This document shows positions 2,929-26,865 of a DNA stretch of 64,000 nt, piece by piece. Every line of letters begins with the position of its first letter. The stretch's first letter is position 1. Origin of the DNA: a virus (taxonomy: Duplodnaviria; Caudoviricetes); IMG/VR virus record IMGVR_UViG_3300036942_000148, positions 1-64,000 of that record; one strand, written 5' to 3'. The notes under the pieces are model-generated. The model saw nothing but the letters and a program-made list of their open reading frames with translations. It was not told where the DNA came from and ran no database searches. A program made the position numbers and the translations under genes.

Positions 2929-4142
2929 TAGTTAAATAGGCACTCATGCTAGTGATAGTATGTTTAAACTTCCTTAATTGCTGGGATTCCTAAAGCTCTT
3001 TTGGAGATATTACAATGGATAATCAGCAGCTTTTTAAATTACAAATCTTTTATAATTAAAATATAATATAAAAGAGGAGAATAAATAAATTATGGATGAA
3101 TTAACAGAAGTATTTGAATTTAACGGAAATGAAATGGAAATATTATTGACTGAAGATGTTGATGTAGAATTTGATGGAGATTTTCTTATGAGTGGTAAAC
3201 AAGTAGCTTCCGTATTAGGATATTCTGATACAAGCGATGCTATAAGAACTCATATAGATGAAGATGATAAAATATTAATGAAAAATTCAAACTTGGTAAA
3301 CCACCAACTTAGAAATTTAGCTAACAGAGGTGAAACTTTTATTACTGAATCTGGTGTGTATGCATTGATATTTGGAAGTAAACTAGAAAAAGCTAAAGAA
3401 TTCAAACACTGGGTAACAAAAGAAGTTCTTCCAACTATTAGAAGAACTGGACAATATGATTTGACAAAAAGAAAAACCCCTAGCTATGAGCTAGAGGATC
3501 CAGTTGAAAGGGCAAAAGTATGGATTGAAGAAGAGAAAGAAAGACAAGAATTACTTCTTCAAAATACTGAATTACGCCCTAAAACTAGAGGAAATAAAGA
3601 TAGCTGGAAAGAAAATATTAGAAATACTATAGAACAAAAAATTTATTCTAAATACCCAACTATCAAAAATCCTTATGAAACTTATAATATTGTTTATGGT
3701 AATTTTAATAATTATTTGTATAAAAATTATAATACCACTTTGGATGATTTCAGAAGGGAAAAGATTTCTGAAAGCTCTGATGAAAAATGTAGCATTGGTT
3801 ATTTAAATAAATTATCAGAAAATGTATTAGAAGGATTATCAATTGATCATGAAATGCGTACTAAATTTGAAGAATTCTTAGCTGAAAAGGTAAATTCATT
3901 AGATTTAGAGTTAAAATATAAATCTGAAATTAATGAATAAATAATATGAAAATAATTAATTATAAAAGTAAAAATTTAAAAAGTTCAACGACTATCCCAA
4001 TATGGGAGTAGAGTATAATTACTAGATACTCAAAAAAGGAAGGATCTCGAAAGAGATTTTGATATAGTCTCATCTTTATAGAAATATAAAGAAGTTCATA
4101 AGAGAACTGTATAAGTTTAGTATGCTTATATGAAGGTAAATG
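2929..4142 (+). ncRNA. group I intron (IA-like) in DNA polymerase, ORF in the P6 loop
   Basis: P1 UGCU/GGCA with U2928-G2939; AATTGCTGGGA, AATCAGCAG, GTTCAACGACTA, GATATAGTC; omega-G 4142; in-frame splice. Confidence 0.92.
3092..3940 (+). CDS. intron-encoded Bro-N domain (antirepressor-like) protein
   Basis: QVASVLGY..DAIRTHID, FITESGVYALIFGSKLEKAKEFKHWVTKEVLPTIRRTGQY, then SYELEDPVERAKVWIEE; no nuclease motif seen. Confidence 0.88.
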   Translation: MDELTEVFEFNGNEMEILLTEDVDVEFDGDFLMSGKQVASVLGYSDTSDAIRTHIDEDDKILMKNSNLVNHQLRNLANRGETFITESGVYALIFGSKLEKAKEFKHWVTKEVLPTIRRTGQYDLTKRKTPSYELEDPVERAKVWIEEEKERQELLLQNTELRPKTRGNKDSWKENIRNTIEQKIYSKYPTIKNPYETYNIVYGNFNNYLYKNYNTTLDDFRREKISESSDEKCSIGYLNKLSENVLEGLSIDHEMRTKFEEFLAEKVNSLDLELKYKSEINE

Positions 4143-5666
4143 AACTCATTTTACGGTGTGACTTCTGAACAAAACTCTATATATTTCAATAAATACTTGG
4201 GAGCTTCTATCACGTATACTGGTGTTACTATCATTACAGTATCCATAATGGCTTTTGAGAATTTCTTAGCTGATAATGTTCCCTATAAGAATTTAGATCA
4301 GATCATTAAGTATATCACCAATATTACTAATGAAGAATATAATTATAAATATGAAGATCTTTTTGATGTCGAATTTAATATTGATTCTGATATTATGATG
4401 GAAAGAATATTAGATAAGACTCACGAAGATTATGCAGTTACCGATAAAGATAAAGAAATAATTAGAAACCTATTAGATAATCTTTCATATGAAGAATTAG
4501 TAAAGATATACTTTAAAAATAATTTTTTAGATATGATAGATATGTCTAATGTTTTAAGTGAATTATTAGAAAATATAGGTATTAGGGAAGATTTTAATGA
4601 TCCTAATGAAGCACCTGAAGATATAATAGAAGAGTTAGATAAGATGTGGGATATACTAAAAGATTGGGTATTTTATGATCATATTCCTATTGATCGATAT
4701 CATAGATGTATTAATGATATGAGAGAAGCAGTTCTTGTGACCGATACGGATTCTACATTTTTATCATTACACAAGTGGTATCAATATATATCTGATAAAT
4801 TTAATTTTGTTAATCCGTCATTAGAAAAACAAGTAGGTGGTATTAATATATTAACTTACATTTTATCTTACCTAATACAAGACGCATTAGATAGAATGAC
4901 TGAAAATATGAATGTACCTGATAATAAGCAACACATAATACAGATGAAGAATGAATTTTTATATAAAACCCTTATGCTGACAAGGAATAAGAAACAATAT
5001 AGCGGAAGTCTAATTGCCAGGGAGGGCAATATTCTTCACGAAAAGGAAACTGATATTAAAGGATTAGCTATTAAGAAATCATCTACTAACGAATATACAA
5101 GAGAATACTTTACAGAGTTGCTAGAAGATGAAATATTGAATGCTGATGAGATAGATCTCTCCTCCATATTAAATAAATATAAAGAATTTGAGGACATAGT
5201 TAGAACCAGTTTAACTGAAGGAGAAGTAACTTTCTCACTTCCACAAAAATTAAATGAAGAGTCAGGATATAAATTTCCATTTAGAATGATGCAATATAGA
5301 GGGTCTATACTATGGAATCATTTATATCCAGAAAAATATATTGATGCTCCAACTAAAGTTAACACACTTAAACTGACAGCAGATAATGAAGAAGATATAG
5401 AGAGATTGAAAGAAGATAACTATGAAATATATGAGAAATTAACTGAATTTGTCTTTGATGATGAAGATATGGCTCATTATGGATTTACTACCATATCAAT
5501 GCCTAAAGATGTGACAAAAGTTCCAGAATGGATTATCCCGTTCATTGATGTAGAGACTTTAGTAGGAGATAATATTAGAAACGCCATCATTCTGTTAGAA
5601 TCATTAGGTTTCCAAACATTAACAGTACTAGGTAGAGATTATTATTCCAATATAATCAGTTTTTAA
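4143..5666 (+). CDS. family B DNA polymerase, C-terminal subunit, exon 2
   Basis: NSFYG (motif B), VTDTDST (motif C), KKQY and KGL motifs; spliced product about 643 aa. Confidence 0.92.
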   Translation, partial: NSFYGVTSEQNSIYFNKYLGASITYTGVTIITVSIMAFENFLADNVPYKNLDQIIKYITNITNEEYNYKYEDLFDVEFNIDSDIMMERILDKTHEDYAVTDKDKEIIRNLLDNLSYEELVKIYFKNNFLDMIDMSNVLSELLENIGIREDFNDPNEAPEDIIEELDKMWDILKDWVFYDHIPIDRYHRCINDMREAVLVTDTDSTFLSLHKWYQYISDKFNFVNPSLEKQVGGINILTYILSYLIQDALDRMTENMNVPDNKQHIIQMKNEFLYKTLMLTRNKKQYSGSLIAREGNILHEKETDIKGLAIKKSSTNEYTREYFTELLEDEILNADEIDLSSILNKYKEFEDIVRTSLTEGEVTFSLPQKLNEESGYKFPFRMMQYRGSILWNHLYPEKYIDAPTKVNTLKLTADNEEDIERLKEDNYEIYEKLTEFVFDDEDMAHYGFTTISMPKDVTKVPEWIIPFIDVETLVGDNIRNAIILLESLGFQTLTVLGRDYYSNIISF

Positions 5667-6528: not shown

Positions 6529-7212
6529 ATGATAGAAGGTATTTCAAAATCAATGATACAAGACAAGAACTACACTCTAGTTACTGATATGGATGAGGTC
6601 ATTACCAATATATCACCTTATTGGTACAAGTTACTATTAGATAATAAAGATATTTTTGGAAAATATTTAGATTTAAATAAAGCTAAAACAGTAGAAGAAG
6701 TTATGCAAAGAAATCATTATTATCTTAATAAGTGGTTGATTAGAGATGGTTATGAAGATCTACCAGATAAAGAAATGGCTCAATTCCTAGCACTTTATCT
6801 CCAAGAAGACTTCTATGATAACTGCGTGTTGACTTCCTTTGGGACTGGACTTAAAAGTTTAAGCCACAAGGATTGGGTGGATAAGATATATATTGTTTCT
6901 CATACAATCAATGGTCAGGATCATAGAAAAGAAAGGTTTCTAAGAAATAATAATTTTAATTTAAGTAATATTGAATTAATTATGGTTGACGGTGAAACTC
7001 CTAAGTCAGAGATCATCAACAAGCACAGTATAGATTACAACACATTCGTAGATGATAGACCTAAAATTTTAGAAGACGTGATTAAAAATACTAATTCGGA
7101 TGGGAAAGAATTCTTATTTCCATTTTTAGGTTACAATATAGAGAGTGAATTGATAGAGGAGTTGAGTAAATCTCATAGATTTGATTTACAGGGATACAAG
7201 AAAGTATTATAA
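6529..7212 (+). CDS. HAD-family 5'(3')-deoxyribonucleotidase-like protein
   Basis: LVTDMDEVI (motif I DxD), IVS (motif II), FVDDRP (motif IV). Confidence 0.75.
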   Translation: MIEGISKSMIQDKNYTLVTDMDEVITNISPYWYKLLLDNKDIFGKYLDLNKAKTVEEVMQRNHYYLNKWLIRDGYEDLPDKEMAQFLALYLQEDFYDNCVLTSFGTGLKSLSHKDWVDKIYIVSHTINGQDHRKERFLRNNNFNLSNIELIMVDGETPKSEIINKHSIDYNTFVDDRPKILEDVIKNTNSDGKEFLFPFLGYNIESELIEELSKSHRFDLQGYKKVL

Positions 7213-7216
7213 ATAT

Positions 7217-7259
7217 AATGACCTATCTATGATTATTATAGATAGGTTATTTTTTTTTT
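7217..7259 (+). terminator. intrinsic terminator
   Basis: AATGACCTATCTA/TAGATAGGTTATT then T-run. Confidence 0.8.
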
Positions 7260-7263
7260 ATTT

Positions 7264-7275
7264 AACAATTATATA
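7264..7275 (+). promoter_or_regulatory. late-type promoter AACA-N6-TA
   Basis: AACA ATTATA TA upstream of beta'N. Confidence 0.7.
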
Positions 7276-7307: not shown

Positions 7308-8015
7308 TTGAAAGCAGACATTTTTGATATAGAAAAGTTTATAGAAATAAATGATTGTCCACAGGTTACCAATCCTGTGATGTTCGACCAAGGTAGCCAA
7401 CCAACAACAGATGGGTTATTTTCTTATGAGTTATTTGGGACTCCATCTAGTTATGATAGGAAGACTATCTATGGATATATTGATTTGAATGGGAGGTTTT
7501 TACACCCAGTAGTTTACCGAGCTATAATTAGCATGAATAGATCAATACGAGATTTAATAGCTGGAAAATCATTATTTAAAGTAGAAGATGGAAATTTAGT
7601 AGAAGCTGAAGAAGGTGAAGCCCAATCAGGAACTGGTATCGATTTCCTTTATACTAAGTGGTACAGTCTAGAATTTGAAAAAACTGACAGTGCCAAGAGG
7701 AACGCCAAGATTGAGATGATAGAAAATATCAAAAGAGATGAAGCATTTATCAATAAGCACCTTGTTCTTCCTGCTTTTTATAGAGATGTTAACATGAGTC
7801 AAGAAGATTTCGGCAGAGTGGGAATGGATGAAGTAAATGGAATGTACGCTAAGTTGATAAACTATAGTTCTTCTCTGGATAGTAACAATTCTTTTTTTGA
7901 CTACCCTAATAATTCTACTAAAAATAGAATTCAACAGACTATCAATGAAATTTATGATTACATGTTAAATACACTAGGCAAGAAAAAAGGTTACATCAAA
8001 GATAAATTAATGAGT
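7308..8015 (+). CDS. rpoC: multisubunit RNAP beta' N-terminal subunit, exon 1
   Basis: DGLFSYELFG, YGYIDL, VLPAFYRD, GKKKGYIKDKLMS; no Cys zinc-binding domain. Confidence 0.9.
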
Positions 8016-8400
8016 AAAATAACTATTTTATAGTTAGCTCCTTCTATTCTGTAAGGGAGTAGAATGAATTCTGTGAATTGCTGGAACCTCCTAAAGCTCT
8101 AGAAACTACAAAGAAACTTGTAAAAGTAAACTTGAACGTTGAGAAATCAGAAAAAATTCTAGAGATAAGATATGGTTAAATCCTAAGTCTTTTTACAATG
8201 GACAATCAGCATCTAAGGATCTTCAATATGAAGATCAAAGTTCAACGACTATCCTATTAAGGAGTACAATTTATTTAAATATCAATAAATTGGAAGTGCA
8301 GAAATGACCTTATTAAAAGGGCATATGATATAGTCTAATTATTTAACTGACTCGAAAGAGATTCAGAAATTTATAAATAATTTATAAATTTTATAATAGT
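8016..8400 (+). ncRNA. group I intron beta'-I1 (ORF-less; boundary ambiguous by 1 nt)
   Basis: P1 GAGU/GCUC; GAATTGCTGGAA, AATCAGCA, GTTCAACGACTA, GATATAGTC; AGTAAA repeated at both junctions. Confidence 0.85.
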
Positions 8401-8891
8401 AAATCAATTGATCATGCTACACGGTCAGTAATATCAGCATCCAACTACTCTACAGAGACTTGGGAGAAACAGGAAACACCTTTTAGGTACACTGGAGTTC
8501 CCCTCTCTCAACTGATAGTTCTGTTCAGACCGTTCTTTGTCAGGGAAATTAAAAACTTTATGGAAGCTAAACTACAAGATAAATCACATATAAATATAGC
8601 GGAAAACGCCAAAGAAGACGCTGAAGTTAAAAAGTACGAACTGAACGACCCACTAAAAGACTTCTCTCCAAAGAAGATAAAAAAGATACTGGATCTTTTC
8701 ATAGAGTCACCCAACAAGAGGTTCAGCAGGGTCTACTTGAGAGCTATAAATCCCGATGGAGACGAAGTAGAAGTTCCTTGCAAGTTCTACCATAATAACT
8801 TGGAGAGGGATTTCACGATAACCGACTTGATATTCATTGCTGCAAAAAGAATAGTACCAGATAAACATGTATACCTAACGAGATTCCCCGT
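8401..8891 (+). CDS. rpoC: RNAP beta'N exon 2
   Basis: KSIDHATRSVISA (GKRVDYSGRSVI equivalent) through YLTRFP. Confidence 0.88.
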
Positions 8892-9128
8892 TAATAACAT
8901 AGCGGTTTAAGTTAGTAATAACTTAAGATATTTCTCCTTAATTGCTGAAAGTTCTGTAAGATAATCAGCAGTAAATCTTATTGGTTTTCAATAAGAATAT
9001 TCAACGACTAATATGTACATTATAATTATAATGGAAATAGGAGACATCCAATTGGATGAAGATATAGTCTAATCTATATAGTAATATATAGTAATTATGA
9101 AATTAAAGAATTCATATAAATATAAATG
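8892..9128 (+). ncRNA. group I intron beta'-I2 (ORF-less)
   Basis: P1 CCGU/GCGG; AATTGCTGAAA, AATCAGCAG, TTCAACGACTA, GATATAGTC; omega-G 9128; splice gives TRFPVESHQSIYP. Confidence 0.9.
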
Positions 9129-9366
9129 AGAATCTCATCAGTCTATATATCCAAGCAAAATCAAGATACTCACTACTAAAAAGACAACTAAGCAAGAAAT
9201 AGGTAGTGAAGTATTCGGTAATTACCCAGTTATTCACTTGGATTACCCAACTATTTATGCAGACAATATAGATCAGAGCGAAGATAGAGACGAAGAAATA
9301 ATGCCATTGGAGAACACGTTTAAAGACACAGTCAGTATTAATCACGTGTTTTTAGAAGCTTTGGGT
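9129..9366 (+). CDS. rpoC: RNAP beta'N exon 3 (absent from ORF track)
   Basis: ESHQSIYPSKIKIL...FKDTVSINHVFLEALG. Confidence 0.88.
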
Positions 9367-9589
9367 GAATATCTCTGCCCAAATAAAACTATTTTAATTG
9401 CTTAAATGTCCTTAATAATGGATAATAAGCAGCAAATCTTATTATATATTAATAAGAATGTTCAACGACTAATATGTACATTAGATATCTAATGGAAAAA
9501 GATAGCAGATTTTAATCTGAAGATATAGTCTAGGCTTATAGGAAACTATAAGGGAATAGGAAATTAATAATTCCTATCAATAAAAATCA
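9367..9589 (+). ncRNA. group I intron beta'-I3 (ORF-less; terminal A)
   Basis: P1 UUUGGGU/GCCCAAA; AATTGCTT, AATAAGCAG, GTTCAACGACTA, GATATAGTC; frame requires exon 4 to start at GGA 9590. Confidence 0.88.
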
Positions 9590-9604
9590 GGAGATTTTGA
9601 CGGT
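9590..9604 (+). CDS. rpoC: RNAP beta'N micro-exon 4 (GDFDG of catalytic motif)
   Basis: GGA GAT TTT GAC GGT between two intron cores; completes LGGDFDGD. Confidence 0.88.
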
Positions 9605-9846
9605 TTTTTGAGAGCCGTCAAATTAAAAATAAATTTCTTTAACTGCTGGAAACTTTATTAAACAATCAGCAGCGATTCTTATTACATTACAATAATAAGA
9701 GCGTTCAACGACTATTAGTATATTGGAAATCCAATAGAAATAAGAGATATGTATACGTATACGGTATACATAAAGATATAGTCTGATCTCTATAGAAATA
9801 TAGAGCTTAATGATATAAGTTTAATGAACTTATATAAACATGAATG
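9605..9846 (+). ncRNA. group I intron beta'-I4 (ORF-less)
   Basis: P1 UUUGACGGU/GCCGUCAAA; AACTGCTGGAAA, AATCAGCAG, GTTCAACGACTA, GATATAGTC; omega-G 9846. Confidence 0.92.
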
Positions 9847-10005
9847 GATCAACTATTCCTTAGAGGAGTCTTCACTCAAGAAGCCAACCAAGAAGCAGAA
9901 GAAATTATCAACTCTAAGAAACACCTTTTAGATGGAAGTGGACATAGTAACAGGGAAACAGGAAACGAATTCATACAATCAATGTTTACTCTTACTAAAG
10001 AATAA
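9847..10005 (+). CDS. rpoC: RNAP beta'N exon 5 (absent from ORF track)
   Basis: DQLFLRGVFTQEANQEAEE...FTLTKE*; spliced gene is 1611 nt, 536 aa. Confidence 0.88.
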   Translation, partial: DQLFLRGVFTQEANQEAEEIINSKKHLLDGSGHSNRETGNEFIQSMFTLTKE

Positions 10006-10736: not shown

Positions 10737-12593
10737 GTGATTTATTTGGCAGTAGTTAATCTAAATAATATTTCATTAGATGATTACCAAGAAATTAAAG
10801 ATAATATTGAAAATGATATAGTTTCTGATATTTCATCTAGGAATCAAGCAATGAAAGTGATAGCAGGAGAATATGAGATCGAGATGCCCAAATCTCAGTT
10901 ATTGATAAACCTAATTCTTTTAAAACCATTTTATATATTTGACAGGGAGATTAATATTGATTTTATATATACGGATACTAAGATGACGGAGGACATGTTG
11001 TCAGATTATTTCAATGAACTCATCGACCATTTCAAAGATGAGGATTATAAGGTTCTTAATGCCACTATATCAGAGATAATAGAGAACTTAGCAGATCTTT
11101 CGGGTGAAGTTAATGTTAACGTAGGTAACAGTATTTCTTTGTACAGCATTATGGAACTTGCAAATGAAAATGAGAGATTCAATGAGTTATTAAATTATAA
11201 AATCCCTGATAACCTCCAATTAAAAGATATTGAAAGAGATTTAGAAGATAAGAGAAAAGAGTTAGTGGAAATACTTTCTACCAATGATAATGAGATGAAG
11301 AACTATCTCAACTCAGAAACTGGGATTAATACCAAGCAGTTGGCTCAAGTTATTATGAATGTAGGTCTTAAACCTAATTTACATGGAAAAGTAATACCTA
11401 CTCCTATTGATAGTAACTTTCTACAGGGATTACGCCACGTTAGAGATTTTTATATTAACGCTATTTCAGGTAGGAAAGCATTGATAACTAATTTTAGTAA
11501 TGTCAGGTCCAGTGGATACCTAACTAGGCAACTCCTGCTATTACTCTCAGATACTTTCCTTAGTGAAGATGTGGAAGATTGTGGAACTAGTCATACTGTA
11601 AAAGTGAAGATTAAGAATAAGGATATACTAGGGAGATTAGAAGGAAGGCATTATGTAGAAGATAATGAGATTAAAACAATCGACGCTGATGATGAGAGTT
11701 TAGTTAACGAAACCATTAAACTTAGGTCACCAGAGACTTGCGCTATAAAAGATGGAGTGTGTAAGACTTGTTACGGTAAAAATCTTGCTAAATTAAATAA
11801 AGATATTCATATTGGAATTTTAGCAGTTCTCACTCTTACCAACCAGCTAACTCAAAGGTTATTATCTTCTAAACACTTATTGCAGACTAATTCTAAAGAA
11901 CTTAATTTCCATAATAAATTTAAGGAATATTTCTTAGTCAATAAGAACATCATAACATTCGAAAGCGATAAGAAAAATACTTTAGTCATTGATAGGGATA
12001 ATTTAAGATTGGATGATGAAAACTCTATGCTTTATATTGATGAGATGACTATAAAAGAAAGAGGGAAAGAGTTCAATATAGATCTTCCCACTAAATTATA
12101 TCTGACCGATGAAATGGTAGAAAAAGTGGAGAACTACGAAGTGGATGATGTTTCTTATATACCAACTAAAGTATTAAAAAATGGAACTGATTTGTTCTCT
12201 TTCATCATGCAAAATAGGGGATTGACTAAACCATTGACTATGATTCAAGATCTAATAGGAAAAAATGACCATTTAGGATTCAAGACTATTAACTCTATCA
12301 CACAGAAATTCTTAGAGTTACTAGGAGAAAGTGGAATACACTTACAATCAGTCCACGCAGAGTTAATATTAAAAGAGTTACTAAGATCCAAAGATGATAT
12401 TTTAAGTAAGCCAGATTTCAGTGAAGATAGTGAACCAGAGTATAAAATACTAAGAGTGAAGAAAGCTTTATTGAAATCACCTAGTATCACTAAAAGTCTT
12501 TCATTTGAAAGACACAAGCAACAATTACTGGATCCTGATACCTACATTAAGAACGAGGAGTCGATATACGACTTCATGTTTGGGAGGGATTAA
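10737..12593 (+). CDS. rpoC: multisubunit RNAP beta' C-terminal subunit
   Basis: SNFLQGL, GRKAL..SGYLTRQL (bridge helix), DCG, RSPETC..GVCKTCYG, IGILA..QLTQRLLSSKH (trigger loop). Confidence 0.92.
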   Translation: MIYLAVVNLNNISLDDYQEIKDNIENDIVSDISSRNQAMKVIAGEYEIEMPKSQLLINLILLKPFYIFDREINIDFIYTDTKMTEDMLSDYFNELIDHFKDEDYKVLNATISEIIENLADLSGEVNVNVGNSISLYSIMELANENERFNELLNYKIPDNLQLKDIERDLEDKRKELVEILSTNDNEMKNYLNSETGINTKQLAQVIMNVGLKPNLHGKVIPTPIDSNFLQGLRHVRDFYINAISGRKALITNFSNVRSSGYLTRQLLLLLSDTFLSEDVEDCGTSHTVKVKIKNKDILGRLEGRHYVEDNEIKTIDADDESLVNETIKLRSPETCAIKDGVCKTCYGKNLAKLNKDIHIGILAVLTLTNQLTQRLLSSKHLLQTNSKELNFHNKFKEYFLVNKNIITFESDKKNTLVIDRDNLRLDDENSMLYIDEMTIKERGKEFNIDLPTKLYLTDEMVEKVENYEVDDVSYIPTKVLKNGTDLFSFIMQNRGLTKPLTMIQDLIGKNDHLGFKTINSITQKFLELLGESGIHLQSVHAELILKELLRSKDDILSKPDFSEDSEPEYKILRVKKALLKSPSITKSLSFERHKQQLLDPDTYIKNEESIYDFMFGRD

Positions 12594-20542: not shown

Positions 20543-20553
20543 ATTCATTTGTT
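20542..20553 (-). promoter_or_regulatory. late-type promoter overlapping the beta stop codon
   Basis: AACA AATGAA TA. Confidence 0.6.
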
Positions 20554-20629
20554 ATTCTTCATATATTTCTCTAACTTTCTCTTTTAGATTTAATATGATC
20601 TTATTAATATATAGCAAGTAATAAACATC
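20552..20629 (-). CDS. rpoB: RNAP beta exon 4 (absent from ORF track)
   Basis: DVYYLLYINKIILNLKEKVREIYEE* after omega-G 20630. Confidence 0.78.
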   Translation of the reverse strand, partial: DVYYLLYINKIILNLKEKVREIYEE

Positions 20630-20867
20630 CAATTATTAATTTATTAACTTTATATTTCTATAAAGATTAGACTATATCATTATCCTTTTTTGAAGGATAT
20701 TCCCTATTTCCACTATAATATTAGTGTACTCTCTTTCGAGATAGTCGTTGAACATTCTTATTAATTTATAATAAGATTTGCTGCTGATTGTCCATTAATA
20801 ATGGATATCCCAGCATTTAAAGGAATTTTTCATATAATATTACTATTATAAGGCTCAATGTTTATTT
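20630..20867 (-). ncRNA. group I intron beta-I3 (ORF-less)
   Basis: P1 GCUUAA/UUGAGC; AATGCTGGGA, AATCAGCAG, GTTCAACGACTA, GATATAGTC on minus strand. Confidence 0.88.
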
Positions 20868-20998
20868 AAGCGTCATTCTACTTACTATACTTAATGGAGA
20901 ACAAATTGCTTCTATTTTATCATCTTCATCATTTTCTGTATATGGAGCATTTTCTTCATCGAATATATCTCCGATTATACTTTTGAGGGCGATATTAA
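20868..20998 (-). CDS. rpoB: RNAP beta exon 3 (absent from ORF track)
   Basis: (F)NIALKSII...SPLSIVSRMTL; restores GDKFTFNIALK and SRMT. Confidence 0.88.
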
Positions 20999-21245
20999 CG
21001 TTTTTCTTTATATAAGATCGTTAATCTTACATCATAAAGCTATATATTTCTATATAGACGAGACTATATCAAAATCCTTAAATTAAGGATTCCCTTTATT
21101 TCTAATAGACTTCTATTATAATATAGTCGTTGAATGTTCTTATTATTAAATTATAATAAGATCCACTGCTTATCATCCAATTAAGGAGTTTCAAGCAATT
21201 AAAAGGGTTTAGACATACTATCACTAGTATGAATCACTAAAATTC
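20999..21245 (-). ncRNA. group I intron beta-I2 (ORF-less)
   Basis: AATTGCTTGAAA, GATAAGCAG, TTCAACGACTA, GATATAGTC; P9.0 GU/AC before omega-G 20999. Confidence 0.9.
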
Positions 21246-22434
21246 ATGTAAATTTATCGCCGACTTCCATATAATCTTTATAAGTTATATAATAGACAAT
21301 CAAAATACCATTGACATCCTGACCATTTATCTTATCTTGATCAGTCTGCTTGACAGTAGGAAGATTCATCTTACTTCTAGGAATCCCTTCTTTTTCAGCC
21401 ATTTCAATTCTCTTATCAGTTCTCTCTTTAAATGTTTTAATTAGTTTTTGAATTGATTTAGACATCTCTTCTAAAGGTCTATTATAATATATTTCAACGT
21501 CAGAAACTGTTCCAGTGTACTTACTCTTTATTATATTTTGACCCATTTTATCTATCTCTTCTTCAAACTCTTGACCGAGTTTATCGAGTAGTTCATTAGC
21601 TTCATCTTCATCAAAGGCACTTTCAAACACTAATAGTGGGTCTCCATTCTTAACTTTAGCACCTTTCTCAGTATAATCCTGAATCACTGTACTAGCACCT
21701 AAGTTTATCTCCTTCTTCATGGTAATTTCAGTAGCCATGTCTTCAGAAAGGTTTCTAGTAATCATAGCACTATCTTCATAGGTTCTATCATTGCTATGGA
21801 TAGCTACCTTAGCGAGAGTTCCACCCACTAATTCAGAATCTTTCTTACCACCTTTAAAGAACTTGTCATTTTTAGATAATACATCATTCTTATCGAACTT
21901 TTCTCCTTCTTTTACCGTTGAGGTGTGTTGATTATTTGTATAAAATCCTGAGTTTGAATTCTTCCCCAAGACAGGACTTAAATCGATAAGGTCTTTTTCT
22001 CCATTATCGTATTTAACAATCATCAATTGATTTTTTTCATCTATTTTTTCAACTTTACCACTATCTTTAGCTTTAAATACAAAATCATCATTCAATACTT
22101 GTGGCATAGTCTTCTCTACTCCACTACCAACTAATAACTTATCCTGCTTATCAGTATTGATAATATGCTTAGATTGGATGGAAGTCATCTGAATTCTCTG
22201 AGCATCAGATCTAGTAGCAGTGAAACTATTGAACATTTCTGAAGGAGCTAATATATCAGCAGCAGTTAGATCCTCTACAGATTTACTAGTATCAATTATT
22301 CCTCTAGTATTTTCAATAGAAGCATTATAACTCATTTGTCTAACATTACCAACTTTACCACTATCAGGAGTATTAATACTAAACGTACCAAACATACTCT
22401 CATCATAAGCTTTTTGTTCTAATGTAAATGATCT
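21246..22434 (-). CDS. rpoB: RNAP beta exon 2
   Basis: RSFTLEQKAYDESM, TPDSGKVG, DAQRIQM..QSKH, TYEDS, VGDK. Confidence 0.92.
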
Positions 22435-22673
22435 CGTTTATATTATTATAGATTCATTAAATCTAAACTATATATTACTATATAGACTAGACTATATCAT
22501 TATCCTTATAGAAGGATACTTCCTTTTTCCATTAGATTTCTAATGTACTTTATAGTCGTTGAACGTTTTTTATTAGAATATAATAAAAATACGCTGCTTA
22601 TTGTCCAACTGGAGTTCTAAGCAATTAAGGAAATTTTCATAAATTATTACTAATTTATGCAGCTCTTGTTAAG

Positions 22674-24047
22674 TTAGTTTAAAAAATCAAATTCCTCAAA
22701 ATAAGATGAATTATTTTTTAGATAGTATTTATTTTCATTTAAAACTTCATTTTTATTTGGATTGAAATAATATAAATCATATATATCTATTACTGCTGGA
22801 TTTATTTTATTATCATCTAAAAATAAATTATCTATTATTTTATTTATATTCTCTTTATTCTTATAAGATATTCTTATAAAATGATAATCATTATCTTCAA
22901 CCCATTTATTTTTAGTCCAATCTCTTTTAATACTATCTTTGCTAGTAAATAAACATTTTTCAAAATGTTGAGCACCATCGTATTCAATAATAATATTATT
23001 ATTAATTAATAAATCCATTGATAGGGTATTTATATATTTTAAGTCTTCAAATCCTTTCTCTGTCTCAAAATCTATATTTTTATTTTCTAAAATGTCAATT
23101 ATTGTTAACATTGCTTTTGAAACAGGAGTTTTACAAATTGGGCAACGAGTTCCTTTATTTAAAAATAAATTAGGAGTTGGATACCAAATATGTCCACACT
23201 CTTTATGTTTTGTTTTAACTCCTGTGCGTGTATTATAATATTCTCCCATTATTTCATATCCTTCTGAAACTTCATTTACTTCTTCGATATACATTTCAGT
23301 ATTTTTATGAAGTTTTCCAGAACATCTTGGACAACCAAATGCATCTGTTTTATTTCTTTGAGCCCAATAATGAACCGTTTTAGGATATCCTTTCCACTCA
23401 AATCCACATACTTGACATTGTAGAAAACATTCTTCTCTATCTTTTGTATAATTATCTATTATTTTAATACGATTTTTAGTAGAATTATCTAATCTTTCTT
23501 GCATAACTTCTTCTGTAATAGTTATTGTCTCTCGACAAACAGTACAAGTTTCTTTGAATTTATCTTGATTTCTTGATCGTATAAATTCAGATGGTAAAAT
23601 TTCAAACTTACTATCACAAACATCATGTAATAATTCTACTTTTGTTTTTCCATCAACAAATTTTGAAAGTAAAGTATAATCATTATCATATAATTCTTTT
23701 ATTCTTGTTTTAAATATCTTTTCAGTTAATTTATGATAATCTTTACCTCTTGTATCTATATTATAATCATTTAATCTTCTTTGAATTAAAGCAATAGATA
23801 CATTAAAATGATTGGCTACTTCTTTTTGAGTCATTTCTTCATCTTTATATAATCTTTTTAATTCATCTTTTGGAATATGCTTTTTATTTGATCGTGTTTT
23901 TATATTATATTTTTTCATCTTTCTTCCAATTGTACTTGATCCACAATCAAAATAATTAGCAAGTTCTTTTTGAGTCATTTCTTCATCTTTATATAATCTT
24001 TTTAATTCATCTTTTGGAATTTTGATTTTTTTAACCATATTTGTCAC
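22674..24047 (-). CDS. intron-encoded homing endonuclease (HTH repeats, Zn ribbons, Vsr/PD-(D/E)xK-like domain)
   Basis: Two HTH units, several CxxC/HxxC motifs, DLLI..IIIEYDGAQH..RD..KN..IRISY. Confidence 0.82.
   Translation of the reverse strand: MTNMVKKIKIPKDELKRLYKDEEMTQKELANYFDCGSSTIGRKMKKYNIKTRSNKKHIPKDELKRLYKDEEMTQKEVANHFNVSIALIQRRLNDYNIDTRGKDYHKLTEKIFKTRIKELYDNDYTLLSKFVDGKTKVELLHDVCDSKFEILPSEFIRSRNQDKFKETCTVCRETITITEEVMQERLDNSTKNRIKIIDNYTKDREECFLQCQVCGFEWKGYPKTVHYWAQRNKTDAFGCPRCSGKLHKNTEMYIEEVNEVSEGYEIMGEYYNTRTGVKTKHKECGHIWYPTPNLFLNKGTRCPICKTPVSKAMLTIIDILENKNIDFETEKGFEDLKYINTLSMDLLINNNIIIEYDGAQHFEKCLFTSKDSIKRDWTKNKWVEDNDYHFIRISYKNKENINKIIDNLFLDDNKINPAVIDIYDLYYFNPNKNEVLNENKYYLKNNSSYFEEFDFLN
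23820..24020. repeat. about 57-bp identical direct repeat at 144-bp spacing within the endonuclease gene
   Basis: Both copies encode IPKDELKRLYKDEEMTQKE. Confidence 0.85.
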
Positions 24048-24063
24048 ATCCTCTAATTTTTAT

Positions 24064-24075
24064 TATATAATTGTT
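24064..24075 (-). promoter_or_regulatory. late-type promoter inside intron, driving the endonuclease
   Basis: AACA ATTATA TA upstream of the AGAGG RBS. Confidence 0.7.
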
Positions 24076-24111
24076 AGTATAGAGGTTGCAACGGTCAATT
24101 TAACATTTTGA

Positions 24112-26865
24112 ACTGAGGTTCTGTCCTGAAGGTCCCGAATAAGAAGAAGCGCCCATTGATTGGACTTCGATAAAAGGATTCAGAATAGAATATTCATTCA
24201 CATTAGGTTGGTCTAAAATAGATTTTACAACTTCATCTTTCTTAACTGATATGTTAACATCAGTATTTCCACCACGTCTAGCATCTTTATATTTTCTAAA
24301 AGCATCTGCCATAGATTTATAAAGAATAGCGTTAACTTGTTCTGCTCCACGGAGTCTATAATTTTCCATACTATTCTTATCTTTATAAGCATTATTAGTT
24401 AATAACTCATTAGCGTAAAGCAACACTCCCACGATATCAGTAGGTTGATCTAAATCTTCTAACACGTCTTCAGTAATGGGATCAATGAATAAATCCATGA
24501 TGTTATTAAATGTTTTACCTTTTAATCTACTTCCATATAAATCTTGGAAGAAATCTAAATAAATAGTCTTTTCATTTAATTTATCGAATTCTACTTCTTT
24601 AGTGGGAGGCTCATAAAGTCCATTAAGAAGCATACTATTTCTAAATGGTTCGTTAGAATAATATAAATAACCATCTGCAAATTCCACCATGTTATATTTA
24701 GAATCTTCTTTGGGAGGTAAATTCTTCTTATCTTCAGTAAATTCATAATCAATATCATACCTATCTAAAACATTTTCTAAACCTTCATAGAAGCCTAATA
24801 ATAAAATAGTAGGAACTTTTACGTTACCAGTTCTCACTCTACTATATACAAATCTATTACCAGCATTTTTACTATTTACTTTAGCATCAATATCTTCATC
24901 AAACTCAGAAATCAAGTTAGTTATAGTGGAATATAAATTACTACCTATATCATTTTTCTTATTACCATTCAAATAAGTAGAGAATACGTTGAATTCTTTC
25001 TTATTCATCACCAATAGCTCTTTATCTTCATCGTTATAACCAAGAACTATCAGATCCTTATCATCTTCAACTTTGTCCAGTGCTTTGGTGTAATCTACTT
25101 TTTGTTTGTTTTCTATTTTTTCTATAACTTTAGATCTATCAAAGAATATATAATTATCTCCAATCTTAATTGAAATCATGTATTGAGATAGATCGTCATA
25201 TTCCAGTGGATTATTATAATCTTCATTATTCCTCAATGCGTTTCCTTTTTCTACAGTTATTCTATTATAGTTCTTGATTTCTTCCACATTATCTACTAAT
25301 TGCTTTCTAAGCTTAGTCATATTCTCACTGACATTAGTTCCAAACCTATTCATAAACATCTTACTGTAATTGCTAACCATCTGAACTTCATCTGGGTTGA
25401 TCTTAGTAATAGGTTTAGGGAATATCTGCTTCTTGATGAATTTCTTACCACCATTGATATAGAAGAATTGACCGTTCTCTACAATAGGAACATCTACTGA
25501 AACGGTATGAGTTTGTCCGTTAACATCAGAAAACTTTATAGTGTAAGTTTCTTTCTTATTGAACTCGTCAGAAGTATCATCTTTTTCGAAACTTTCAAGG
25601 TAGACAGGAAATTCTTTATCATCATTGAAACCAGTAAGAATTGCAGCTTGATCCTGTTCGAATTGCTTTTCCATATAGTTTCTATCAAAATCTTTCATAG
25701 TAGATTGCTTCAGATCTTCATTGATCACGTCAGCTTCTATATTTTCCTTATCTATTTTTTTAGCTTGAAAGTTTTCTAATATTTCTTCTATAGTCTTTCC
25801 AGAATCCATTTTAATCTTAGCTTGTTTGTCAGATAATTCATCTTTCCTCTTATCTAACACTTTCTGTTGATTGTTAGATATTCTCTTTTCATTAACTTTC
25901 TCTATATATTTTTTAAATTCTTCGTTATCTTTTAAGTTTTCTATGATTTCATCCTCATCAACTTCCTGCTCACCTTCAGGAACTTCCTCATCAACTAGTT
26001 GTCTCACTTTCATGAAGTGTTCATTATTAGAGTTAATATCAAATAAATCAGATATCCTTCTAGCTATCTCATCTTTTATTCTTTCCTTACCTTCTTCATC
26101 TTCTGTCTGTTTTTCAACTTCTTGAGTTTTTTCAGTCTCATTATCTTGCTTAATATTATTCATAAACTTTTCTAATTGTGTATTAAATCTAGCACGGTTT
26201 ACTTCCCCGTCTATCTTAAACTTCATCCACAATTTTTCTCTAGAGTTGTACAAAACAAAAGTGATATTTTCGAACCTTCTGTTCAATAGGTTCCTAGTAT
26301 TAACCCATTGGTAGATAAATGATAGAGGATGAGTGAGATTACTCCTATCGCTGTAGTCATAATATTCATTAACAGGAACTATGCAGTAAGCATTATCTCT
26401 ATGAGGAACTTTATTTTCATCTAATACTTGGTGTAAATAGTCTTCAAACATATTCACTTTCCGTTTCTTCTCGTACATCACCCTTTGGAAGAAACCATTT
26501 ATATTAGGAGAAAGGTCATAAAAATAATTAATATCTTCATAGCTATCTAAGTTCCTTTTAGTCGTCTTTATATATTGGAAATTCTTCTTTAAATATTGGT
26601 AGTACTTCCTCCTATCGACTCTTATTTTAGTACCTCTAATTAGATCAGAATCTATATATCTATTAACGTAATAACCAGTTATTAATCTAGGGTAAAATAG
26701 TTCATTCTTTATCAAATCTTCTAAATCAGTTTTCTCTTTAGAAAGATTAAAAATTACATAATTATCATCATTATCTTTATCGTTAAAGATAAGTTTGTTA
26801 TAATTATATAAGTATAAATTTTTCAACTTTTTTATAGAATACACTAAATATGCACTTCCTTTCAT
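24112..26865 (-). CDS. rpoB: RNAP beta exon 1 (with long N-terminal extension)
   Basis: VDVP..GQFFYINGGKKF, NYRLRGAE, LNPF.EV, GPSG; spliced beta is 4152 nt, 1383 aa. Confidence 0.9.

Follow-up and report, generated by a model that had tools for sequence, protein, structure and literature searches.

Within a 64-kb stretch of phage DNA (Duplodnaviria; Caudoviricetes), we examined a gene at positions 7308 to 10005 that sequence comparison identifies as the N-terminal part of the beta' subunit (beta'N) of a jumbo-phage RNA polymerase (RNAP), putatively the virion enzyme. The stretch, hereafter the window, comprises positions 1 to 64,000 of the 78.6-kb IMG/VR virus record IMGVR_UViG_3300036942_000148, which is estimated to be ~31% complete. 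In the reading that we favor and consider highly probable, the beta'N gene has been invaded by four related group I introns that lack open reading frames (ORFs), and their selfish spread at a conserved, deletion-intolerant site has left two of them 15 nt apart, with a micro-exon between them in the Mg-binding loop. The sequence evidence indicates that this micro-exon, which encodes GDFDG, is real. The catalytic loop is split such that LEALG ends at 9366, GDFDG (GGAGATTTTGACGGT) lies at 9590-9604, and DQL follows from 9847. With introns called by the Rfam covariance model for group I introns (RF00028; gathering score 50 bits), the gene is laid out as follows.

7308..8015, plus strand: exon 1, TTG start, ends ...KDKLMS, 236 aa of beta'N
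8016..8400, plus strand: intron 1, group I, 385 nt, with a large P5 insertion; RF00028 21.4 bits, E 0.013 (match 8038-8357)
8401..8891, plus strand: exon 2, KSIDHATRSVIS to TRFPV, last codon split into GT and A; gap-free against 16 homologs
8892..9128, plus strand: intron 2, canonical group I, 237 nt; RF00028 74.9 bits (8882-9091); U8891.G8902, terminal G9128
9129..9366, plus strand: exon 3, ESHQSIYPSK to NHVFLEALG; tblastn against Listeria phage LPJP1 and homolog alignment
9367..9589, plus strand: intron 3, group I, 223 nt; RF00028 66.6 bits (9329-9552); P1 9360-9366 with 9377-9383; P10 9590-9595 with 9371-9376
9590..9604, plus strand: exon 4, the micro-exon, GGAGAUUUUGACGGU, encodes GDFDG
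9605..9846, plus strand: intron 4, canonical group I, 242 nt; RF00028 75.2 bits (9595-9805); U9604.G9614, terminal G9846
9847..10005, plus strand: exon 5, DQLFLRGVFTQEAN to LTKE, then TAA; tblastn 49% identity to the LPJP1 C-terminus

Joining the five exons (708+491+238+15+159) gives 1611 nt, or 536 aa and a stop, with zero internal stops, which reproduces the length stated in the original prediction, a short account of this DNA made from its letters without database searches. When the joined protein is aligned to 16 intronless homologs from viral and metagenomic contigs, all four junctions are gap-free, and the expectation that the spliced product would match beta'N homologs is thereby borne out. 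The protein of LPJP1, whose gene is intronless and likewise starts with TTG, matches four separate stretches of the window and leaves its residues ADYDG unpartnered between LEALG and DQLFLRG. The predicted messenger RNA (mRNA) junctions are AGU-AAA, GU-A, and GGU-GGAGAUUUUGACGGU-GAU, with exon 5 contributing the third Asp of DFDGD (GAT CAA CTA, coding for DQL, starts at 9847). If the introns splice as proposed, the subunit would carry a peptide spanning LEALGGDFDGDQLFLR. It had also been claimed that the ORF track misses exons 3-5; this holds only for the micro-exon and under the usual length cut-offs, whereas with the minimum lowered to 30 aa, stretches of both exon 3 (9238-9405) and exon 5 (9844-10005) are listed as ORFs.

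Of the three Asp in the catalytic DFDGD loop, which holds the catalytic Mg2+ in multisubunit RNAPs, the micro-exon supplies the first two. The joined loop reads GGDFDGD against a family consensus of G[GA]D[FY]DGD and is aligned in all homologs, and it is homologous to the NADFDGD of cellular beta'. While a single-sequence PDB search with the C-terminal part of a relative gave nothing, the family profile matched the beta' of the AR9 non-virion RNAP (7S00/7S01) and bacterial beta' chains, with the motif aligned to GDYDGD of 7S01. Fourteen of the 15 micro-exon bases pair with the guides of the flanking introns: bases 9590-9595 (GGAGAU) pair with 9371-9376 (AUCUCU), directly 5' of the intron 3 guide G in the canonical P10 register, and bases 9597-9604 (UUGACGGU) pair with 9614-9621 (GCCGUCAA) as the P1 helix of intron 4 (-12.9 kcal/mol, z -5.0). 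Only 128 of the 4^15 possible 15-mers code for GDFDG, and the interval separating exon 3 from exon 5, ~480 nt long, would contain one of them by chance with a probability of ~6e-5. The homolog alignment, the intronless allele of a relative (L005, described below), and the P1 fold together support the initial observation of a catalytic loop spread over three exons, including a 15-nt micro-exon. A search of IMG/VR with a degenerate DNA pattern covering the micro-exon and the intron 4 P1 gave eight matches, all in unrelated coding sequence, and no second micro-exon locus.

The strongest evidence pointing to this exon structure comes from natural intronless alleles. Two homologous loci with 80-89% identity to the window (L005 and L033) are without introns 1, 3, and 4 and read KLMSKSIDHAT and LEALGGDFDGDKLFLRG uninterrupted, the latter being the predicted joined sequence; at the loop, the L005 DNA is GGT GGT GAC TTT GAT GGA GAC. 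L005 has a homologous intron 2 (97.6 bits), which is in turn absent from a ~95% relative represented by contigs from two shale-gas runs. Here, 8885 is joined to 9133 by the ten bases TCCTGTGGAG to give RFPVESHQ, exactly the predicted intron 2 junction. Public contigs on the region cross-map among intron copies, which obscures the status of intron 3 in the ~95% relatives. Each of the four introns is missing from some close relative, and because these relatives live without each one, no intron is needed for the phage life cycle. When the micro-exon is compared to the intronless L005 allele, 4 of the 5 wobble positions differ, and each wobble base of the window is guide-paired; these differences would fit either co-conversion of the flanking exon with the intron or selection for pairing.

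Introns 2, 3, and 4 give full-model matches to RF00028 (model positions 1-253) above the gathering score. The Infernal-type check that had been suggested thus yielded three full-length matches at 67-75 bits and a fourth at 21.4 bits and, along with homolog collinearity and the intronless alleles, it upholds the claim of four ORF-less group I introns, three by strong matches and one by a weak one. No ORFs of >=60 aa are found inside the four introns, the only one above 30 aa being a 33-aa TTG frame in intron 1. Despite an insertion of ~110 nt in P5, intron 1 keeps the J6/7-P7 and J8/7-P7 motifs; its core motifs GTTCAACGACTA and GATATAGTCT are present, and its best P1 (GAGU/GCUC), located directly 5' of P2, is recovered by folding together with P2. 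The U-G P1 helices originally described at the 5' sites of introns 2-4 were all recovered by RNAfold (z of -3.7 for intron 2; -2.2 for intron 3, UUUGGGU/GCCCAAA with U9366.G9377; and -5.0 for intron 4). Across eleven members of the intron family (from the window, L005, L006, L017, and L021), compensatory double changes occur at 32 of 50 consensus pairs, in a set of related sequences where change counts overstate independent events. Introns 2, 3, and 4 are mutually 65-70% identical and, at only this level of identity, they are paralogs rather than the result of a recent tandem duplication. The family has at least eight copies in the window, and further copies are found in a minus-strand beta-like gene of the window and in the DNA polymerase genes of relatives.

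Introns 2 and 4 have unique junctions with fully canonical ends, and it is on introns 1 and 3 that the points weighing against our reading are concentrated. The RF00028 score of intron 1 is well under the gathering score, and in both introns, a canonical 5' U and terminal G are incompatible with the reading frame. In intron 3, the U.G pair and P10 set the junction at 9366/9590, but the last base is then A9589. Positions 9367 and 9590 are both G, and cuts after G9367 and after G9590 therefore give the same mRNA; when shifted by one base to 9368-9590, the intron keeps a terminal G but has a G.U pair at the 5' site. The boundary of intron 1 slides within a duplicated AGTAAA, where only 8015-8399 (5' site after G8014) ends in G. 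Pairing U8015.G8037 with a terminal G8399 would join AGU to UAAAUC and create an in-frame UAA, while the in-frame junction, 8014/8400 or 8015/8401, is possible only with a G at the 5' site or with a last base other than G. The sequence of P7, the helix containing the G-binding site, is identical to that of the canonical sibling introns and, being the same in all siblings, gives no appearance of altered nucleotide specificity. Finally, that the introns actually splice, like the order in which they do so, is something that we infer.

A sibling intron in L006 with the same P1 is canonical (GAGU/...CG/A) and in frame as NEYLYK, and another L006 sibling is out of frame under the canonical U.G and terminal-G rules. 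We found nothing usable in the literature on natural exceptions to these rules. Other solutions for intron 1, namely a programmed +1 frameshift at AGU-UAA-A, re-initiation on exon 2, or 5' sites at U8011 or U8020, were rejected on the grounds of no cognate re-pairing, no start codon, or residues gained or lost in the conserved LLGK-x-x-D motif. As introns 1 and 3 break the U/terminal-G rule in a seemingly functional gene, they offer a simple test of how strict this rule is in nature.

The irregular ends could mean that the gene is crippled, with introns 1 and 3 mis-inserted or mutated at their splice sites, such that canonical splicing leads to a stop (AGU/UAA) or a frameshift and the lineage is defective or reliant on another copy. 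The canonical rules do put the products of introns 1 and 3 out of frame, and as the record holds ~31% of the genome, a second copy could lie outside it. We nevertheless judge this very unlikely, because the exons are without stops or frameshifts and retain every conserved residue, three or more separate assemblies share the sequence, and a profile search of the 78.6-kb record finds no second beta'N copy. Moreover, each intron has one in-frame junction that is exactly that of the intronless allele, which would be unlikely to arise by chance if the gene were undergoing decay. In intron 3, a 6-bp P10 in the canonical register supports this junction; intron 1 is without comparable support, and its short 3-bp P10 suits the out-of-frame join. 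That the structure is instead an assembly artefact, with repeated intron copies mis-stitched in a metagenome, is in our estimation exceedingly improbable. In favor of an artefact, the introns form a repetitive family, and public contigs aligned to the region cross-map and produce false joints, but the exons are in the correct order and frame. In addition, L062, which derives from another JGI sample, is 100% identical to the window over 8134-9649, from intron 2 through the start of intron 4, which leads us to treat an artefact as excluded. L006 confirms intron 1, and Logan contigs of one sequencing run (X1) tile the region with zero differences. Counting the window itself, L006, and L062, the sequence has been assembled separately at least three times, at ordinary depth. 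Near-identical DNA is present in oil-field and shale-gas metagenomes, and a search of sequencing runs for the region listed no RNA run.

Alongside the observed anatomy of the gene, its collinearity with homologs, the intronless alleles, and the covariation of the intron family, we propose a course of expression for a gene invaded by selfish introns. A single late transcript of ~2.7 kb would start from an AACA-N6-TA promoter, and each intron would fold on its own P1 helix and excise itself, such that only a transcript rid of all four introns would encode the 536-aa subunit. Introns 3 and 4 would have inserted 15 nt apart within the codons of the Mg loop and left the GDFDG micro-exon, whose first six bases would serve the P10 of intron 3 and whose last eight would serve the P1 of intron 4, with the U.G wobble at the splice site. 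It had been proposed that four self-splicing events gate every active enzyme. Collinearity, the intronless alleles, and the Rfam matches agree that all four introns must go for an intact subunit, but we see no sign of splicing being used to regulate the enzyme. Selfish introns accumulating at a conserved homing hot spot would account for the pattern most simply, in line with the standard view of phage introns (PMC12908238).

The alternative in which splicing serves as a regulatory device would have micro-exon inclusion or the removal of four introns be rate-limiting, or dependent on GTP or translation, and thereby time or limit assembly of the virion polymerase, with skipped transcripts leading to an inactive, possibly dominant-negative subunit. 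Exon skipping has been shown experimentally in Twort orf142 and in a SIOphi gene (>47% of transcripts), and a "molecular on-switch" has been proposed for phage introns, in the portion of that paper available to us (PMC11878797). Exon 3 and the micro-exon both end in GGU, and the intron 4 guide could pair weakly (3 bp) with the end of exon 3. Close relatives, however, are without introns 1, 3, and 4 or without intron 2, and the intron 3 guide is unpaired with the start of exon 5, such that skipping would proceed without P10 support. The idea also hinges on the exact boundary of the micro-exon. The claim that skipping stays in frame stands if the micro-exon is 9590-9604 and intron 3 ends in A9589, but it fails if intron 3 ends in G9590, because the micro-exon is then 14 nt and skipping shifts the frame. 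In either case, the product is without the catalytic loop, and a skipped inactive isoform may possibly occur. We consider regulation by splicing improbable on these grounds. Also rather improbable, though worth stating, is a variant in which some family introns splice with non-canonical ends (a 5' G or a non-G last base) and the micro-exon, of 14 or 15 nt, is included part-time; the resulting mix of active and loop-less subunits would adjust virion polymerase assembly or its timing.

When relatives are compared, the same 15 nt are found to be interrupted at four different points (marked by slashes), while ~30 other homolog loci are uninterrupted at the loop site.

LG/GDFDGD: intron 3, seen only in the window
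GAD/FDGD: L021-L023 (L021 4820-5020), a 201-nt ORF-less intron with the family core motifs, canonical U.G, and terminal G
GDYD/GD: AR9, a group I intron carrying endonuclease gene g146 (RF00028 86.7 bits)
DFDG/D: intron 4 of the window, and endonuclease-bearing introns in L019/L020, Yersinia phage phiR1-37 (L032), and L034

The 201-nt intron of L021 has no Rfam match even at E 0.1. With four insertion points in 15 nt, the RNAP catalytic loop stands out as a strong hot spot for homing. In phiR1-37 (L032/L061, ~123400-125010), the intron is unannotated, and the record lists g178, g179, and g181 as separate ORFs. We observe that g178 and g181 are two beta'N exons split by a group I intron with the 315-aa ORF g179; the intron scores 44 bits against RF00028, under the gathering score. 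For the window, ORF-based annotation would report an essential subunit in fragments and never the catalytic loop, as is likewise the case in the phiR1-37 GenBank record. Three other beta'N homologs have short interruptions or a possible frameshift elsewhere in the gene (L043 582-743, L048 3503-3592, and L052 6485-6487), which could reflect either further small introns or faulty assembly.

The window (8016-8400) and L006 (7167-7551) share an intron 1 that is 100% identical, whereas the surrounding 3.9 kb are 96.5% identical. At this divergence, ~14 differences would be expected in 385 nt, and the identity of the intron amid less similar flanks suggests its recent lateral spread. In contigs of a second run (X2), the last ~200 nt of exon 1 are identical to the window, which looks like co-conversion of the flank. 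L006, a 96-97% relative, also has two extra family introns (3360-3589 and 3838-4057) in an upstream gene of the divDNApol family, where the window has none (4732-4958). These represent presence/absence polymorphism within one phage population, and the first is out of frame under canonical rules.

The gene is identified from sequence as an ortholog of AR9 g145, because g145 is the best match and a g151-like neighbor is shared with AR9. The exon 1 protein is 43% identical to AR9 g145, a virion RNAP subunit by annotation, and the next matches are in Listeria, Staphylococcus, and Yersinia jumbo phages. The phrog_2986 profile is continuous across exon 1 (positions 8-241, E 2.9e-58) and exon 2 (242-417), an uninterrupted C-terminal part from a relative corresponds to positions 420-535, and exon 5 matches positions 456-505 in a search of the phage's own record. 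Membership in the virion enzyme, and with it packaging, is suggested by the best match to g145, the shared synteny, and a promoter motif of the late type. Pfam gave nothing on single exons, megablast of the region against phage GenBank records gave no match, and an exact-peptide scan of IMG/VR with exon 1 gave no relatives, such that a profile search was required. Exon 3 read through into intron 3, when used as a protein query, found only the window's sequence and the identical contig L062. The neighboring features are as follows.

6529-7212: upstream gene, AR9 g151-like deoxyribonucleotidase (homology to g151, 34% identity, E 2e-32)
7217..7251, plus strand: terminator-like hairpin and T-run closing the upstream gene (terminator scan)
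7264..7275, plus strand: AACA-N6-TA motif, putative late promoter (from sequence and the AR9 late-promoter consensus)
10737..12593, plus strand: beta' C-terminal-like RNAP subunit, 618 aa, intronless (phrog_3015, E 4.4e-86)

In AR9, g151 likewise sits between a DNA polymerase gene and g145. The AR9 late-promoter consensus is AACA-(6N)-TA/G (PMC5312081), and a late monocistronic transcript probably starts at the corresponding motif of the window. The product of 10737..12593 also matches Pfam RNA_pol_Rpb1_5 at 26.3 bits, under the curated cut-off of 28.5.

Like the window gene, g145 of AR9/PBS1 lies next to a g151-like gene, is split by self-splicing introns (annotated as a join of three exons), and has a group I intron within the catalytic motif. 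Unlike the window gene, it has two long introns, each with a homing endonuclease gene, and with a single loop intron it has no micro-exon, whereas the window gene carries four group I introns that are short and ORF-less, two of them in the loop at positions unused in AR9. The first intron of AR9 g145 (L001 5220-5393 and 6633-6717) and one at nearly the same site in L007 (1278-1406 and 2640-2725) match the group II models RF02004 and RF00029. The AR9 record labels the endonuclease of this first intron "group I intron VSR", though Rfam gives group II, a reading that agrees with PMC12350094.

Several group I introns per gene are also known from Twort orf142, the large subunit of the phiNIT1 ribonucleotide reductase, and a SIOphi gene, and in phiNIT1, a small exon between two introns was revealed only by sequencing of complementary DNA (cDNA), according to the available part of the source (PMC11878797). 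Unlike the window gene, these are tail tube, reductase, terminase, or polymerase genes, and none is reported with a catalytic metal-binding motif spread over three exons. In placozoan cox1, a single-base micro-exon is known; such organellar micro-exons, recovered only via homology or deep RNA sequencing, resemble that of the window in being very short and missed by gene callers but differ in belonging to eukaryotic mitochondrial genes (PMC5436844). Jug phages have a mean of 18.5 introns per genome of ~206 nt, with essential genes split and about half of the introns validated by metatranscriptomes (PMC12880540); the examples given are terL, nrdD, and a DNA polymerase gene, and no catalytic-loop micro-exon is described. 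In the jumbo phage PhiPA3, an intron in an RNAP subunit gene encodes an endonuclease that acts in phage competition (PMC12908238, PMC11620839). Unlike the window introns, it carries a homing endonuclease, and no catalytic-loop micro-exon is described there.

Already published, then, are beta'N as an intron target, the AR9 intron inside DYDGD, short ORF-less phage introns, small exons with skipping, and organellar micro-exons down to a single base. What seems to be new is a 15-nt (or 14-nt) exon of a phage protein gene by which a catalytic metal-binding motif becomes divided among three exons and whose bases are nearly all paired to a ribozyme, as does the pair of introns with irregular ends. 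The gene takes a familiar behavior of phage introns to an extreme and represents no new kind of system. It does illustrate how crowded with introns a phage gene can become, in that two ribozymes share one 15-nt exon that codes for two catalytic aspartates and holds pairing partners for both.

Elsewhere in the window, the minus-strand RNAP beta-like gene (20552-26865) has three more group I introns (RF00028 53.8-75.8 bits). The first contains a 457-aa endonuclease ORF (22674-24047; phrog_559, E 1.8e-52), the only endonuclease gene identified inside a window intron. Just downstream of this gene, also on the minus strand, we observe a "skipping-rope" RNA (RF02924, 20460-20541) at 61 bits versus a gathering score of 36.7.

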